This document shows, in pieces, positions 1,940 through 46,551 of a stretch of DNA of 64,000 bases. The notes below the pieces were generated by a model. It saw nothing but the letters and a program-made list of their open reading frames with translations, was not told the DNA's origin and did no database searches. Numbering within the stretch: position 1 is the first letter of the stretch; each line of letters starts with the position of its first letter. This stretch comes from a virus (Duplodnaviria > Caudoviricetes): IMG/VR virus record IMGVR_UViG_3300035208_002115. One strand, given 5' to 3'. Position numbers and translations under genes: made by a program.

Positions 1940-3577
1940 TTAGATTAATACACCATTAGTGTCAGTTACGTGGATAGCCATGAATTGTTTTTCTGGGAAG
2001 AAACCAATATCAGCGATAGCATAACGGCTACGAATCATCATTCTTGGAGCCCAGGTTGCTTCAGAGATTAAGCTGATGCTTTGAGCCATCAAGTAAGGAA
2101 GGAAGATAAGACCGGGTTGGTCTACTGAGTTCTTACGTCCTAAGAAGACACGGTTGTCATTCCATGTTTGATAAGGGTCAACATAGATAGCTATTTGTCC
2201 AAGGTTACCCATTGGATAAAGCTGACCATTAGTGTTCAATTTTGACATTGCAGGTGGGTTAAGGGTGTAAGTTGATACATCCTGTAAAACAGAAGCAATA
2301 TTACCATTAGTAACAAGGTACTGAGCTGGGCCAACCCTACCATCAGTAGCGATGAAGCTAGATGCATTGTTGATTTTAGCAACAAGTTTTCTCTGAACTG
2401 AGTGAGTAGTTTCACCACCAGGAGCAACACCACCAAGATAAGCAGTAACATCGAAGTCAAACTTAGCTGTTGGTACAGTAACTCTGGTTCTTGCCAATTC
2501 AGCAAGTTCAGTAATTTTAGCAACAATCTGTTTAGAAATAGTCTGAGTTAACTCATTGATTAAAACAGATTCTAATTTCTGAACGATGTCCATACCAGTA
2601 GATGCTTTTATATCTTCAATCTGAGTACGTTTTAAAGCACTTGTGATTTCGATATCACCAACCTGTACGGTTTTGGTGCTTACATCTGGGCCAATTACAC
2701 CGGGATATGTATGTTCGTCTGTGTCACGGTTCATACCTGTGTTTAAATTCCAACCAGCAACGAAACCCGGAATGTGGTCTTCCATTAATGATACTAAGTC
2801 AACATTAGCTTCAGTCAATCCTGTTAATGCTGATAATGCATCAGCAACAACAACATCCCAACCAAATGTATTTTTAGTAGCATCGAAAATAGGTTCAACA
2901 CCACCTAATTGAGGAACTGCAACCTGACGGAATGTACGAAACATTGGAAGTCCGTCAACTTTTGAAAATCCAAGAAATTCAAGGATGCCAGTTTTTGTAG
3001 CAGGTTCAACATCATATGTAGCTGTGTTAGCAGCATAGTTGTAGAACATACGAGCAGTCATACCACCAATTCTTTCGATGATAGCACCTGCTGGACGAGC
3101 AGCCATTTGACCTCTAAGAGCAGCAGCTAAAATAGCAGTTTCAGTAGAATCATTTCCAGCAACTTTGAAAACCAAAGGTTTATCAAGTGATTCGTCATTA
3201 TTATTATCGTATTTGAAATCTACGAACAATAAATCAATTTTAGGTGAAGCAGTAGGTTTAACAGCTATTAAATCAAGACCAATAGTCTGAGCTGCGATTT
3301 TCATAGAAACAGGAAGTAAATTCTGTCCAATATCACCAGAACCATCAGTTCCACCACCCCATACCTGACCGGGTACGTTAGATGGCTGTGGACTTACAAT
3401 AGCACCCATACCATTTAAGTTACCAAGTGTTGAGTAACCAACGTTTTCATTCATCTGATGCATTTCTGCATATTCAGAAAGCCATGCTCTTTTGTCAGGG
3501 TCTTTAATACCAAGTTCTTCTAAAACTGGTAACCATTTTTTTTCAGCTTTCGCTATATCAACATTATAATTTAACAT
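1940..3577 (-). CDS. gp23: Major capsid protein, T4 gp23-like
   Basis: KKWLPVLE, AAQTIGLDLIAVKP, IYVDPY, PGLIFLPY, PRMMIRSRYA motifs; lies next to protease and portal. ATG at 3577 preferred because the track start 3646 lies upstream of the late-promoter motif. Confidence 0.93.
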   Translation of the reverse strand: MLNYNVDIAKAEKKWLPVLEELGIKDPDKRAWLSEYAEMHQMNENVGYSTLGNLNGMGAIVSPQPSNVPGQVWGGGTDGSGDIGQNLLPVSMKIAAQTIGLDLIAVKPTASPKIDLLFVDFKYDNNNDESLDKPLVFKVAGNDSTETAILAAALRGQMAARPAGAIIERIGGMTARMFYNYAANTATYDVEPATKTGILEFLGFSKVDGLPMFRTFRQVAVPQLGGVEPIFDATKNTFGWDVVVADALSALTGLTEANVDLVSLMEDHIPGFVAGWNLNTGMNRDTDEHTYPGVIGPDVSTKTVQVGDIEITSALKRTQIEDIKASTGMDIVQKLESVLINELTQTISKQIVAKITELAELARTRVTVPTAKFDFDVTAYLGGVAPGGETTHSVQRKLVAKINNASSFIATDGRVGPAQYLVTNGNIASVLQDVSTYTLNPPAMSKLNTNGQLYPMGNLGQIAIYVDPYQTWNDNRVFLGRKNSVDQPGLIFLPYLMAQSISLISEATWAPRMMIRSRYAIADIGFFPEKQFMAIHVTDTNGVLI

Positions 3578-3653
3578 AATATTTTTAATTTTTTTTTTGT
3601 CTTTTGTAGTCTTATATATTATCGCTAAAAAGCGACTTTTTTCCATATTTAGA

Positions 3654-6059: not shown

Positions 6060-6224
6060 AGAATGATATACTTATTTTTTTTGTAGTTTTGTAAGTATAT
6101 ATTTTATTCGAAAAGCGTTATTTTTCTATTTTGATAATAATGTAATATTGACTTTAAATAAACCAGTTTGATTTAAATGATATTTTTTAAATTTTTTTAA
6201 TATATATTAAAAAAAATAAAAGGT

Positions 6225-6482
6225 ATGATGCATATTAAATTATTCGAAGAATATCATAATGGCGTTAATTTGCTTGTGAAATTTCATGATTATGATATTT
6301 ACATCAAAGCAGTTGAATATTTCAAAACAAAAAGTGATTTTATGCCTGATGATTATAATTCTGAATTTAGAAGTATTTCATTCTTTTGCACAGACCAAGA
6401 AGATGCTGATACGACAGAAATTGTTATAAGTGAAGCATTAGACAATGAAGGTATCAATGGATATTATTTTGAATCTGAATAA
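6225..6482 (+). CDS. Small protein with a capsid-targeting-like N-terminus (MHIKLFEEY)
   Basis: ORF track; AATATATA upstream. Confidence 0.65.
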   Translation: MMHIKLFEEYHNGVNLLVKFHDYDIYIKAVEYFKTKSDFMPDDYNSEFRSISFFCTDQEDADTTEIVISEALDNEGINGYYFESE

Positions 6483-41234: not shown

Positions 41235-42722
41235 TTATTCCAAATTCTTAAATAATATGTCTACTTTCTTGGAAACCAGTTCTCTACCCTTCAAAAGTTG
41301 AGATTTTATCGTAGATAGATTTATACCTAAAGCATTAGAAATCTCTTGATATTGCATACAATCAATTTCTCGCATGATTAATACCTTTTTATATTTTTCA
41401 TGTTTTTTAGGTAATGTATAAATGACATTTCGAATTATTTCAGCTTTTTTATCGATTAAAACCTGTTGATTCAAATCATCCTCACCATAATCATATGGTA
41501 TCAAATTTAATAAATTAACTCCGTAGTCTTCGTCATCGTTTGAATTAGAAGAATTATTATCAATAGGCACAACATTTAATCGTTTTTCATCTTTAAATGA
41601 TTTTTTAACGATATTTTCAGCAATTCTATATAACCAAGTATTAAATTGGGACTTCTCTGGGTTGTAGGATTCTATTTTCTCCAAGGCTTGTATGAATGCT
41701 TCATTAGCAAATTCTTGGGCAGATTCAAGGCTTTTTGTATATTTGGCAAGATGCCAACTTAAATTATTAAAATGTTTATTATAATATTTTTTAAAGACGA
41801 TGCCAACTTTATTTTCAAATAACTTCTCACATTTATTCTGAATATTATTTTCTTCAAATAAAGTGAATAATATTTCTATAATTCTATCTGTTTCACGACA
41901 AACCGCACCAGCATCTTTATTCGAAAACATATCCATATATTGATGGAAAACATCCAAAGCATTAACATTAAAATCTAATCCAGACTCTAAAAACTTTTCT
42001 GGTGTTTTTAATGCTTCTATTAAAATTTCGTCTTTTAAATTTATATTTTTACGAATTCGCCTGTCCAACCCAAGTATTTTTTGTCTTTCACCAAGTTTTA
42101 TTTGTCCCTTAGAATCAAACGCTATTAATTTATTTGAAAGACTTCTATAAGATACTTTCTCATTCTTTAATCTTTCTAACGTGTTAGTTTGTCTCTCGAC
42201 AGCTTTTGTAAATAATTTTAATTTATCTGAAATCTGTTCTATTTTTTTAATATATGAAAATTTACTATGTTTAATTCGATGTGATGTGTGACTATTATTA
42301 TATGTTATAAAAGATTTACTATTATTTTCTCTATATAATAGACCCATATTTAATTGAGTTGATATTTTCCCATTGACCGAATCAGATAAAGAAATATATT
42401 CAACATAATCTTCACCATTAATATACAAACCTTTACACATGAAACTTAATTCATACTGACCATCTTCGTAAAATGTAAGTGAATATAACAGTGGATTAAT
42501 ATTATTTTCTTTTAATTTATTTAGAATTAAATCATTAAATACTGGGTGTTGGAAAAGAAGTTTTTTATGGGTTGATTCACATTTGGCTATTTCAGTATCA
42601 CCAAATTTTATATGTAATATTTTTTCCCCATTTTCAACTTCAATGTTTGTTTTTAAGCTATTCAAAATAAATTTTAATTCTCTGGTATTATATACTCCCG
42701 AACGCTCAAATGACTTTCTCAT
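41235..42722 (-). CDS. DUF932-like domain fused to an ECF sigma-70 factor
   Basis: C-terminal sigma regions 2 and 4 (AQEFANEAFI, FNTWLYRIAEN, YQEIS..LGINLSTIKSQL); the N-terminal ~290 aa parallels ORF 43375. Confidence 0.8.
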   Translation of the reverse strand: MRKSFERSGVYNTRELKFILNSLKTNIEVENGEKILHIKFGDTEIAKCESTHKKLLFQHPVFNDLILNKLKENNINPLLYSLTFYEDGQYELSFMCKGLYINGEDYVEYISLSDSVNGKISTQLNMGLLYRENNSKSFITYNNSHTSHRIKHSKFSYIKKIEQISDKLKLFTKAVERQTNTLERLKNEKVSYRSLSNKLIAFDSKGQIKLGERQKILGLDRRIRKNINLKDEILIEALKTPEKFLESGLDFNVNALDVFHQYMDMFSNKDAGAVCRETDRIIEILFTLFEENNIQNKCEKLFENKVGIVFKKYYNKHFNNLSWHLAKYTKSLESAQEFANEAFIQALEKIESYNPEKSQFNTWLYRIAENIVKKSFKDEKRLNVVPIDNNSSNSNDDEDYGVNLLNLIPYDYGEDDLNQQVLIDKKAEIIRNVIYTLPKKHEKYKKVLIMREIDCMQYQEISNALGINLSTIKSQLLKGRELVSKKVDILFKNLE

Positions 42723-44235: not shown

Positions 44236-44404
44236 ATTGAATATTTTTAGTGGATACTAATATTATCATCACAAAAATATATCAAATTATTCGAATAAAA
44301 AAATATTACAATACTTTTTATTGAGTATAAGAATTAAAAAACCGCTTATTTAGCGGTTTCAGTTACAATTGTAGGAACTATTATAATCATAAAAGAAAAT
44401 GATG

Positions 44405-45391
44405 TTATTCATCACAAATATCTTTTAATTTTTCTTTTCGTAAATTTAAAAATAAATTATGAATAACTTTTTTTTCCTGAGTAGTTAAATATTCATTTTG
44501 TCTATTTGGGGATTCGTAATTACCAGTAGAAGTAAAATATAAAAGATTATATATGGAACAAATTGCTCCTTTATAACCTTTTATTAAAAATTTATACTGC
44601 ATCAAACCACCCATCTTCACTCTCTGATATTCATATGGCATAGTTATTTTAATTTTCTTATTTCTTATTTTATTTGTTGTGGTATATTGTTTTAAAACTT
44701 TAATTATGTGGCTGACAAAATCCCCCATATCCATATGAAATGCACTATTACAACAATCTCGACAATATTCAGCAATGAATTTCTCGGTTTTATTATTAAA
44801 TTTACGATTTATTTTAGCCGTATAATAATGCATACCCTTAAAGTATTTATCATCTAAATTCATTCCCAAAAATTTCATTAAGTTTTTTAAATCGTTGAGT
44901 TGAAATGCTGTGAAGTGTTCGTTGTTTTATTAAATTGTAAAACTCATTAACTTTATCATCACCAACAATTTCTAATTCATAAATTGGTATCTCAGTATGA
45001 ACACTGATAATATAATATCTTTCAAATTTCTCTTGTAATGTCATCACTTAAAATGTCTTTAAGTTTTTCCTTTCGTTCTCTTATTTTTTTCTTTTTAGAA
45101 TATTCTTTAGAGATTTCAAGGAATCTATTAATATCATCTACTTCAGTATCAATATAGTTATTCAGATGTTTCGAATTCATCACCAAATATTTCTTTAAGT
45201 TTGTCTTTTCGATGTCCAACTTTTATTTTTCGTTTTGTTTCCTCACTAAATGGTTTCATGGACATTGGATATAACGATTCGAAATCCATTTTCATGATAA
45301 TCGATTTATATACTTTATCTGGCGGTGGTAAAAGTCTTATTTGACCACCTTTATAATTTTTTGGGTCGAAAAATGCTTTCTTCTTTTTCAT
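44405..45391 (-). CDS. Array of four overlapping tagged ORFs (45158, 45022, 44850, 44405); 45158 carries PolB motif A-like DFESLYP
   Basis: End RKDKLKEIFGDEF, RKEKLKDILSDD, RFKKLNEIFGNEF, RKEKLKDICDE. Confidence 0.75.
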
Positions 45392-45921
45392 TAAATAAAA
45401 GTTTTTAACCCTTTCTTAATCATTTGAACGAATGCTTCGGCACTACCTTTCGCATCATCAATTGGGTGGTGTGTGTGACGGGTTTTTCTCAAATATTTAA
45501 ATCCTTTGAAATATCTCATATTACCAATCATACCTTGGTATACATTATTCAAATTTGTAGAAGTGTGTCCAAATGGATTTTCATTACAATATTCCCAGAA
45601 ATACCAATCCATCCACTGGAAATCAAAACCATTATTATCAGATAAGAAAAGTGGTCTATCACCTAAGTTTGTTTCTTTAATCCAAGTATAACATTTATCC
45701 ATAGTTTTTTGGGGGTCTGGAAATTTAAGGTGTTCTTCTCTGGTGAATCCAGATACTTTTAAAGATTCTGGTATCCACAACTCAGATATAGGTGCAGTCT
45801 GCCCATAAAAAATTTTATCCAGTTTAAATTCTTTATCTACAAAAACGATACCGAAACATACCATTGAGTGTTTTCCAACTTGGCGACCGTCTGTTTCAAC
45901 GTCAATAACAAAATAACTCAT
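45391..45921 (-). CDS. DEDDh 3'-5' exonuclease (RNase AS/oligoribonuclease-like)
   Basis: IDVETDG, NGFD, HHPIDDA; start at MSYF because TATATTTG lies at 45949-45956. Confidence 0.85.
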   Translation of the reverse strand: MSYFVIDVETDGRQVGKHSMVCFGIVFVDKEFKLDKIFYGQTAPISELWIPESLKVSGFTREEHLKFPDPQKTMDKCYTWIKETNLGDRPLFLSDNNGFDFQWMDWYFWEYCNENPFGHTSTNLNNVYQGMIGNMRYFKGFKYLRKTRHTHHPIDDAKGSAEAFVQMIKKGLKTFI

Positions 45922-45996
45922 GAAAATAAAATTATAATTTTTGTAAAGCAAATATAAATAAAAAGGGGGAGTTTTTAGCTCCCCAGTTATTCTTTT

Positions 45997-46551
45997 TCAA
46001 ACATTTTCTAACAACTTATAAAAAACTATATTGTAGAAATAAAAATAATCTTCGGATAATTTTCGGGCTGCATAATTTATTTTAGTCTTAGTTTTTCGAG
46101 ATATATCAATAAGACCTAATCCAGCACCACCCTTTTCAGTATAACCAACATCATTCAGTACATATTTATAGTATTCATGTAATTGTTCTTCGTTTAGTGA
46201 ATTTATTTTATCAATTTGAAATTTTAATTTTTCAAAATTGACACTATTAATCACATTACCAGTGAATAACATAATACGGCTATCTTGTTTATGTATCGCA
46301 AACACTGGTTCAACCTTTTTATCACATGTTATATCATGGTGTTTAATAACATTCTGTAATAATTCAACTGCCACATAATTCAATTTCTTCTTATCCTTAG
46401 TTTCATAATCCGATAAAGCATTCTCTATCTCATTATATGGTATGTGGGGGTCAGAAAATAATGCATCATTTTCATAGACGAAAACGCCACCATCAATATG
46501 TTCAGTATATAATTCCTTCTTTAAGAATTCCATATGTTTATTGTATTTCAC
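45997..46551 (-). CDS. SiaB-family (DUF6272) GHKL-type protein kinase
   Basis: VELLQNVIKH, TGN, IDKINSL, KGGAGLGLIDISRK. Confidence 0.8.
   Translation of the reverse strand: MKYNKHMEFLKKELYTEHIDGGVFVYENDALFSDPHIPYNEIENALSDYETKDKKKLNYVAVELLQNVIKHHDITCDKKVEPVFAIHKQDSRIMLFTGNVINSVNFEKLKFQIDKINSLNEEQLHEYYKYVLNDVGYTEKGGAGLGLIDISRKTKTKINYAARKLSEDYFYFYNIVFYKLLENV

Follow-up and report, generated by a model that had tools for sequence, protein, structure and literature searches.

A 77-residue phage mini-protein joins a DNA polymerase motif-A segment to a C-terminal helix tag found on many ORFs of the same genome

Results

The virus record IMGVR_UViG_3300035208_002115 (Duplodnaviria; Caudoviricetes) is 675,678 bp long with 27% GC and carries T4-type portal and capsid genes. 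The window, that is, the whole stretch of DNA that was analysed (64,000 nucleotides), corresponds to genome positions 541370-605369, and positions below are those of the window unless marked as genome positions. On its minus strand lies an operon of five genes in the order hairpin, promoter-like site, DEDDh exonuclease, 77-codon mini-gene, three further ORFs with the C-terminal tag described below, and hairpin (Table 1); the mini-gene is the second of the five. The promoter-like site also reads TATATTTG, which we take to fit the Bacteroidota -7 box TAnnTTTG. The TAA stop of the exonuclease overlaps the ATG of the mini-gene (TAATG), and each of the three genes after the mini-gene has its ATG within the acidic-tail codons that follow the tag of the preceding gene. 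Just upstream of the operon is a gene for a DUF6272 protein (45997-46551, minus strand; Pfam E 1e-28) with a glycine-rich stretch, GGAGLGL, and 3 kb downstream is one for a 495-aa sigma-70-family protein (41235-42722, minus strand) with a 300-aa N-terminal extension.

The 77-aa ORF is a real, intact gene frame. Read off the sequence, it contains YKGG, IRLLPPP, DFESLYP and the tail RKDKLKEIFGDEF. PHROGs assigns no family to it or to its small neighbours, and Rfam detects no structured RNA at its locus.

Table 1 Features of the mini-gene operon and the resident family B DNA polymerase (PolB) genes; window positions unless marked as genome positions.
Feature	Position	Strand	Basis and remarks
Terminator-like hairpin, operon 5' boundary	45984-45966	-	Consensus match only
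Promoter-like site	45958-45931	-	Consensus match only
DEDDh (RNase_T/DnaQ-like) exonuclease	45391..45951	-	Pfam PF00929 E 1.9e-8; PHROG 192
Mini-gene, 77 aa	45158..45391	-	ATG 45391..45389, TAA 45160..45158 (ORF list and sequence)
PolB-segment copy, residues 8-48	45248..45370	-	YxGG strand through motif A and first turns of next helix
YKGG (PolB YxGG motif), residues 13-16	45344..45355	-	Aligned to YKGG/YAGG of Pol alpha; invariant in three full orthologues
DFESLYP (PolB motif A), residues 36-42	45266..45286	-	Includes catalytic Asp and steric-gate Tyr positions
Helix, residues 50-69	45185..45244	-	AF2, pLDDT 86-90
Tag R-K-D-K-L-K-E-I-F, last nine helix residues (61-69 of 77)	45185-45211	-	Genome-wide pattern
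ATG of tagged ORF 2	45178..45180	-	Embedded in GGTGATGAA, Gly-Asp-Glu codons of the mini-gene acidic tail after the tag
Tagged ORF 2, 52 aa	45022..45180	-	ORF list; tail R-K-E-K-L-K-D-I-L
Tagged ORF 3, 64 aa	44850..45044	-	ATG inside ORF 2 tail-coding DNA
Tagged ORF 4, 157 aa	44405..44878	-	152 aa from ATG 44863 in ORF 3 tail-coding DNA
Terminator-like hairpin and T-run, operon 3' boundary	44338..44360	-	Consensus match
PolB piece A (exonuclease part and motif A)	genome 539492-540991, outside window	+	Pfam scan
PolB piece B (motifs B and C)	genome 659109-660569, outside window	-	Pfam scan

The mini-protein resembles PolB in its N-terminal part. Its aa 10-43 align with 40-71 of the 453 positions in the Pfam profile DNA_pol_B (PF00136), at E 5.4e-5 and a score of 22.6 bits, the cutoff being 23 bits, and a six-frame scan of the whole 676-kb genome with this profile gives E 3.1e-5 at the mini-ORF. 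In phmmer searches of PDB sequences, 11 of the 12 best matches are to PolB at motif A, and residues 11-48 are colinear with the YxGG-to-motif-A region of Pol alpha. The segment is 36% identical to aa 376-411 of piece A of the resident PolB (shuffle p<=0.001), and a motif-A regular expression applied to all six genome frames matches only the real PolB (piece A) and the mini-ORF. Motif A (DxxSLYPS) is preceded by YxGG, the combination that characterizes a family B DNA polymerase, and the likeness of the mini-ORF to PolB, judged by sequence, exceeds chance. An earlier note on this DNA had described a 77-aa ORF with PolB motif A at 45158-45391; its exact coordinates (minus strand) and quoted motifs are borne out, and both the profile alignment and the comparison with the resident polymerase come out significant and colinear. 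The 77 aa hold no motif B (KxxxNSxYG), motif C (DTDS), fingers, thumb or exonuclease domain; in the genome, motif C is found only in the resident piece B, and motif B only there and in one other mini-ORF. Given its length, the partial DNA_pol_B match and the missing motifs, the mini-protein is not a polymerase and, without fingers or thumb, cannot catalyse anything.

The phage's own PolB lacks no part, although a break at the finger tip divides it between two genes on opposite strands, 119 kb from each other. All seven relatives examined show this split, with frames that end 81-115 aa after motif A, and among the 52 IMG/VR loci that encode the ten-residue DFASLYPTTM about 40 are split piece-A genes. 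The segment in the mini-protein is, as far as sequence tells, the version typical of the finger-tip-split PolB of this clade. A whole-genome Pfam scan at E<=10 yields no further polB match near the mini-ORF, and when both PolB pieces are compared with 41-50 kb by tblastn, only scattered, non-colinear noise appears. The earlier note had named non-significant matches, or the rest of a frameshifted polB pseudogene in adjacent frames, as grounds for dropping its reading. The PolB match is significant, the adjacent frames hold no colinear polB remnants and the resident PolB is intact though split; hence a frameshifted pseudogene is rejected.

At the DNA level, the motif blocks of the mini-gene and the resident polB share 25 of 54 nt, with the same third base in only four of the eight identical residues, and the motif Leu codon is TTA in one gene and CTT in the other. 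The motif is thus kept without DNA similarity to polB, which makes it neither the result of gene conversion, rejected as a source of its conservation for this genome, nor a recent copy; the differing codons indicate that the motif residues are held at the protein level.

Two other frames recall parts of PolB. In two phage contigs (2 of the 52 IMG/VR loci), a 59-aa frame (contig L072, about 6141-6310, plus strand; the same in L041) contains a GGWVK-like strand and an exact DFASLYPTTM, has neither start codon nor tag and is flanked by two unrelated genes. The frame seems to be a non-coding remnant that other phages carry of this polymerase segment; being start-less and tag-less, it indicates that such motif-A fragments can also be neutral debris. 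A 91-aa tagged frame outside the window (genome 416056-416331, plus strand) has a segment that resembles the fingers helix of piece A (aa 457-488; shuffle p ~0.013), which is a weak lead only.

The earlier note had also read the IRLLPP segment as gp32-like, and the mini-protein could on that basis be a designed mosaic in which an IRFLP-like motif of the single-stranded DNA-binding protein is inserted between the YxGG motif and motif A of PolB. The true gp32 SSB gene (genome 433566-434048; Pfam PF08804, E 2e-21) contains YKATIRFLP, which can be set beside YKGGQIRLLP of the mini-ORF, and the PolB consensus has no counterpart of the inserted residues RL. However, the gp32 profile PF08804 run over the whole genome gives no match at the mini-ORF even at E<=1, and pairwise comparison with the resident gp32 stays at chance level (E 2.3; shuffle p 0.36-0.68). 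In the HMMER alignment to PolB, IRLLPPP belongs to the matched segment: it corresponds to the strand that separates YxGG from motif A, lengthened by two inserted residues, and this alignment fully explains the five-residue likeness. The gp32 claim therefore falls; with the profile, pairwise and shuffle tests all at chance we reject the chimera, which is extremely unlikely.

The true start of the exonuclease is likely the ATG at 45921. Its 323 homologues are mostly of cellular type (50-58% identity), many of them on long contigs of cellular size. In the closest complete relative, a 640-kb phage whose PolB has the same split and 92% identity, the exonuclease is missing from the syntenic locus and so looks like an inserted gene, of bacterial type by its sequence. 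Two homologues of the mini-gene are found as small ORFs on other contigs (77 and 75 aa; 70% and 66% identity). The 90%-identity cluster of the exonuclease comprises three sequences and no more, from contigs that are 678 kb, 3861 bp and 2206 bp long, and because these match the mini-gene contigs in size and source, the pairing of exonuclease and mini-gene appears to recur; the synteny of the homologues is read from the matching contig sizes and sources.

Exonuclease and mini-ORF might also be joined by a -1 ribosomal slip in TTA-AAA-ACT before the exonuclease stop, giving an exonuclease-YxGG-motif-A protein that would copy the domain order of PolB. Such a slip would find the mini-ORF frame open for eight codons 5' of its ATG (45392-45415, minus strand), at -1 to the exonuclease, with an A-run within the overlap and a gene order that mimics the PolB order. 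But A-runs are ubiquitous at 27% GC, the 640-kb relative has the mini-gene without any exonuclease, and the exonuclease is of the DEDDh bacterial type and not PolB-derived. We consider a frameshift fusion very unlikely.

The C-terminal tag is a genome-wide feature, with the consensus R-K-x-K-L/I-x-E/D-I-F/L at the C-terminus of ~130 ORFs. Frames of 45 aa or more contain the core tail pattern 82 times, in 70 cases within 14 aa of the stop; a looser pattern retrieves 131 ATG-ORFs. Just upstream of the core pattern, an Arg that the search pattern does not impose is present in 69 of 70 cases, encoded by AGR (44) and CGN (26) codons. The third codon positions of the tag carry little information and there is no conservation downstream of it. 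The use of two Arg codon families, together with the lack of downstream conservation, points to selection on the peptide and not on a DNA signal, and a promoter or initiation-site signal as the cause of tag conservation is rejected on the same grounds. The mini-protein belongs to the tagged proteins, with its tag within ~14 residues of the stop and on a predicted helix. A likeness of the tag to the N-terminal helix of piece B is not significant (p 0.2), which leaves the tag as a copy of that helix unsupported. A sliding clamp was considered as the hub that the tagged proteins might share; the clamp families PF09116, PF02916 and PF00705 are not detected in the genome, although a divergent clamp could escape these profiles.

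Tagged small ORFs match larger resident proteins in 21 cases, compared with 5 in reversed controls (~4 times). The best such match is that of a capsid-like tagged mini-ORF to the major capsid protein (1940-3646), with 63% identity over 27 aa (E 1e-6). This mini-ORF, whose body matches the capsid protein, lies outside the window (genome 223918-224205, plus strand), and a neighbouring tagged ORF (genome 223568-223732, also outside the window) has a weak capsid-protein match. The earlier note had taken the mini-gene to be of the same design as an array 44 kb away and an independent instance of it. This holds: the tail is the same as in the array at 1-1900, and a separate locus in its own operon makes the mini-gene an independent instance of a core-protein fragment combined with the tag.

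An AF2 model built with the family alignment has a mean pLDDT of 69, and its only confident helix is the one that ends in the tag. The PolB-like half (residues 8-48) has no confident structure (pLDDT 56-70) and is predicted to be unstructured alone; the Atlas model is also poor (pLDDT 0.43). A model that is confident for the tag helix alone fits a displayed linear peptide.

Tblastn against GenBank phages returns nothing matching the mini-ORF, a search of viral and metagenome contigs with the three-orthologue alignment returns no related loci, and the tail peptide searched as a degenerate DNA pattern has no matches. An exhaustive search of 1.84 billion representative proteins with a profile of the three orthologues gives 17 hits. 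One is the query, two are long proteins of 1007 and 2072 aa that match the motif-A part of the profile, and 14 are proteins of 46-73 aa that represent 14 further 50%-identity clusters. Of these 14, 13 share one layout, in which a short and variable N-terminus is combined with motif A, a basic helix and the tag; the remaining one is the orthologue of the 640-kb phage, which lacks the motif. The D, S, L, Y and P of the motif are nearly invariant in the 17-member alignment, but this invariance is partly ascertainment because the hits were retrieved by a motif-A-plus-tag profile, and the unbiased sample for motif retention is the four syntenic orthologues. Pfam DNA_pol_B independently matches 8 of the 17 members (best E 1e-6), of which 16 are known here from protein sequence alone, and the family profile matches only PolB among PDB sequences. 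The motif blocks are up to 93% identical to the PolB of the clade, with unalignable flanks. Two members have arrangements that are absent from PolB (each with shuffle p<=0.0005): in P0135 the fingers helix of piece A stands before motif A, and in P0126 the N-terminal helix of piece B does so. On these alignments, microproteins that combine PolB motif A and the tag are a previously undescribed predicted family, recurring in many related uncultured phages.

Across the three full orthologues, YKGG, the RL.PPP segment, MDF.SLYP and the tag are invariant, and in the homologues a wholly different sequence takes the place of the ten-residue linker that joins the two PolB strands. The mini-protein diverges ~4 times faster than the neighbouring exonuclease. 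At the syntenic locus of the 640-kb relative (G001), the orthologue has 57 aa; ~21-25 residues including motif A are gone, and the frame, N-terminus and tag are kept. The motif is thereby retained in three of the four syntenic orthologues. Its deletion in the closest complete relative makes the mini-gene accessory, and the preserved frame and tag of that orthologue imply some conserved function independent of the motif. Between the two phages, dN/dS is ~0.45 for the mini-gene, an imprecise value (49 codons, dS near saturation), 0.14 for the DUF6272 gene and 0.34 for the 157-aa tagged gene, which is 61% identical in the relative.

A relaxed constraint of this order, a short PolB-only fragment and the non-coding relic of the same segment in other phages are what one would see if the mini-ORF were a decaying fragment of a second polB, or of a duplication at the time of the split, that merely happens to be open. 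Against such a relic, the start and stop are intact and a length of 75-77 aa is kept in three phages, the TAATG coupling is precise and the tag in frame, polB remnants are lacking nearby, dN/dS is below 1 and the same architecture is present in 14 further clusters. A pure relic is therefore quite unlikely.

The main rival is a different one, in which the mini-protein is a generic tagged early protein that functions through helix and tag, perhaps also through an N-terminal FDPK.YK.G, and motif A is historical. This would explain an orthologue in the 640-kb phage that has lost motif A with frame and tag kept and dN/dS<1, and it agrees with the predicted disorder of the N-terminal half; neutral motif-A relics exist elsewhere, and the family search carries an ascertainment bias. 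However, three of the four syntenic orthologues keep every PolB signature residue next to a completely replaced linker, with codons that differ from polB and residues held at the protein level, and many family members consist of little besides the tag and a motif that is up to 93% identical between unalignable flanks. We regard a merely historical motif as possible, if rather doubtful.

Discussion

The 77-aa ORF is a genuine mini-gene, predicted to be translated, and neither a polymerase nor a decaying polymerase gene. We propose, at a probability of roughly 0.4, that its product imitates the active-site peptide of the polymerase, is docked through the tag and has its target in the host or in a rival phage. 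The tag helix would dock the mini-protein onto a putative common partner of the tagged proteins, and the flexible N-terminal half would display the most conserved and least mutable peptide of the polymerase as bait or competitor. The target may be a host immune factor, or a component of a rival phage, that recognizes this polymerase segment, rather than the phage's own replication machinery. Such a docked mimic is the simplest reading because it uses both conserved parts, and the product is probably a docked molecular mimic rather than that of a broken polymerase gene. A host or rival-phage target is likelier than the own replication machinery given that the mini-gene is accessory and, outside motif and tag, fast-evolving; the excess of tagged mini-ORFs that match resident proteins (21 versus 5) likewise favours it over a role in assembly of the split PolB.

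In the PolB palm fold, the motif-A strand (here on piece A) pairs with the motif-C hairpin (piece B). The mini-protein might hence regulate or chaperone the phage's own split polymerase, by occupying the exposed half-palm of piece B, where it would compete with piece A or else retain piece B until the two assemble. The finger-tip split is clade-wide, in all seven relatives and about 40 of the 52 IMG/VR loci, the family copies the motif version of the clade, P0135 and P0126 carry elements that flank the split site, and the strand pairing follows from the palm fold. However, the 640-kb relative has the same split PolB without an intact motif-A mini-gene, so that the mini-protein cannot be a core assembly factor. 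The mini-gene is also fast-evolving, and other tagged mini-ORFs copy proteins that are not split, the capsid protein among them, so that an explanation of wider reach is needed. A role on the own polymerase thus appears improbable.

A more general form of the docked-mimic reading, which we put forward tentatively as one possibility, is that the megaphages of this clade run 'motif-bait' microproteins, with those peptides of core proteins that are most conserved and least able to mutate, here the strand and helix of the polymerase active site, presented on a common docking helix. These baits would neutralize host sensors, or enzymes of rival phages, that recognize the same core peptides, with the mini-ORF as the bait made from the polymerase and as the first example of a family spread across metagenomes.

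Should the activity reside in the motif-A peptide, phages would have in the mini-protein their own version of a decoy or pseudosubstrate: an invariant peptide from the active site of an enzyme, copied as a separate small protein and carried on a docking tag that other proteins share. The host, or phages that compete with this one, would then contain something that reads the motif-A peptide, that is, a sensor or target of family B polymerases. The family is small (46-77 aa), easily synthesized and tested, and recurs in many uncultured phages. Even on the dull reading, the locus would show the birth of tagged genes from core-gene fragments, in a cassette system in which the DNA of each tag supplies the start codon of the next gene.

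The Gol peptide of T4 gp23, recognized by the Lit protease, is a short linear peptide of a conserved core phage protein read by a host defence. Gol sits within the complete capsid protein and sets off the defence, and recognition of this kind is what a peptide decoy would need as its target. We know of no free-standing decoy copy of Gol and of no sensor of PolB motif A, and our literature search found no description of phage mini-proteins with polymerase motifs and a shared tag. Among known defences, the Borvo system senses phage DNA polymerase (bioRxiv 10.1101/2022.08.27.505566).

The resident PolB resembles the gp43 of T4-related phages in being split between two finger helices. The passages on split gp43 in PMC3061061 and PMC2988022, which cite Petrov et al., describe a finger-tip-split gp43 (43A/43B) and report that this split gives an active enzyme in T4-like phages and in engineered Pfu. 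The split genes lie 2 bp to 3 kb apart in T4-like phages according to the same passages of PMC3061061, whereas the two pieces here are 119 kb apart on opposite strands. These passages deal with the true polymerase and mention no extra motif-A mini-genes (PMC3061061, PMC2988022).

In mechanism, the nearest class by analogy is that of microProteins and dominant-negative fragments. As characterized in parts of PMC7584889 and PMC9245647, these are small, related to part of a larger multidomain protein and without its function, and a protein can be inhibited in vivo by fragments of itself (PMC9245647). The mini-protein is likewise small and shares sequence with one part of a larger protein from the same system, and microProteins would act by binding the partners of the larger protein (PMC7584889; PMC9245647, same parts), much as proposed here. 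Classical microProteins, as these parts present them, keep a folded interaction domain, whereas the mini-protein keeps a strand and helix piece of an active site, predicted to lack structure, together with an unrelated tag for putative docking.

The nearest published idea, again by analogy, is that of the ankyrin ORFs of Bodo saltans virus, which carry 5' fragments of essential genes and for which such fusions were proposed in 2018 to be decoys (PMC5871332). Like the mini-gene, they join an N-terminal fragment of an essential enzyme to a common interaction module in more than 100 copies per genome, and the decoy role in an arms race is the proposal of their authors, as it is ours here (PMC5871332). 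Bodo saltans virus, however, is a giant virus of eukaryotes with a multi-repeat ankyrin module, whereas the present genome is that of a bacteriophage with a nine-residue C-terminal helix tag, the products here are only 46-77 aa long, and the motif-A mini-protein recurs in many phage lineages.
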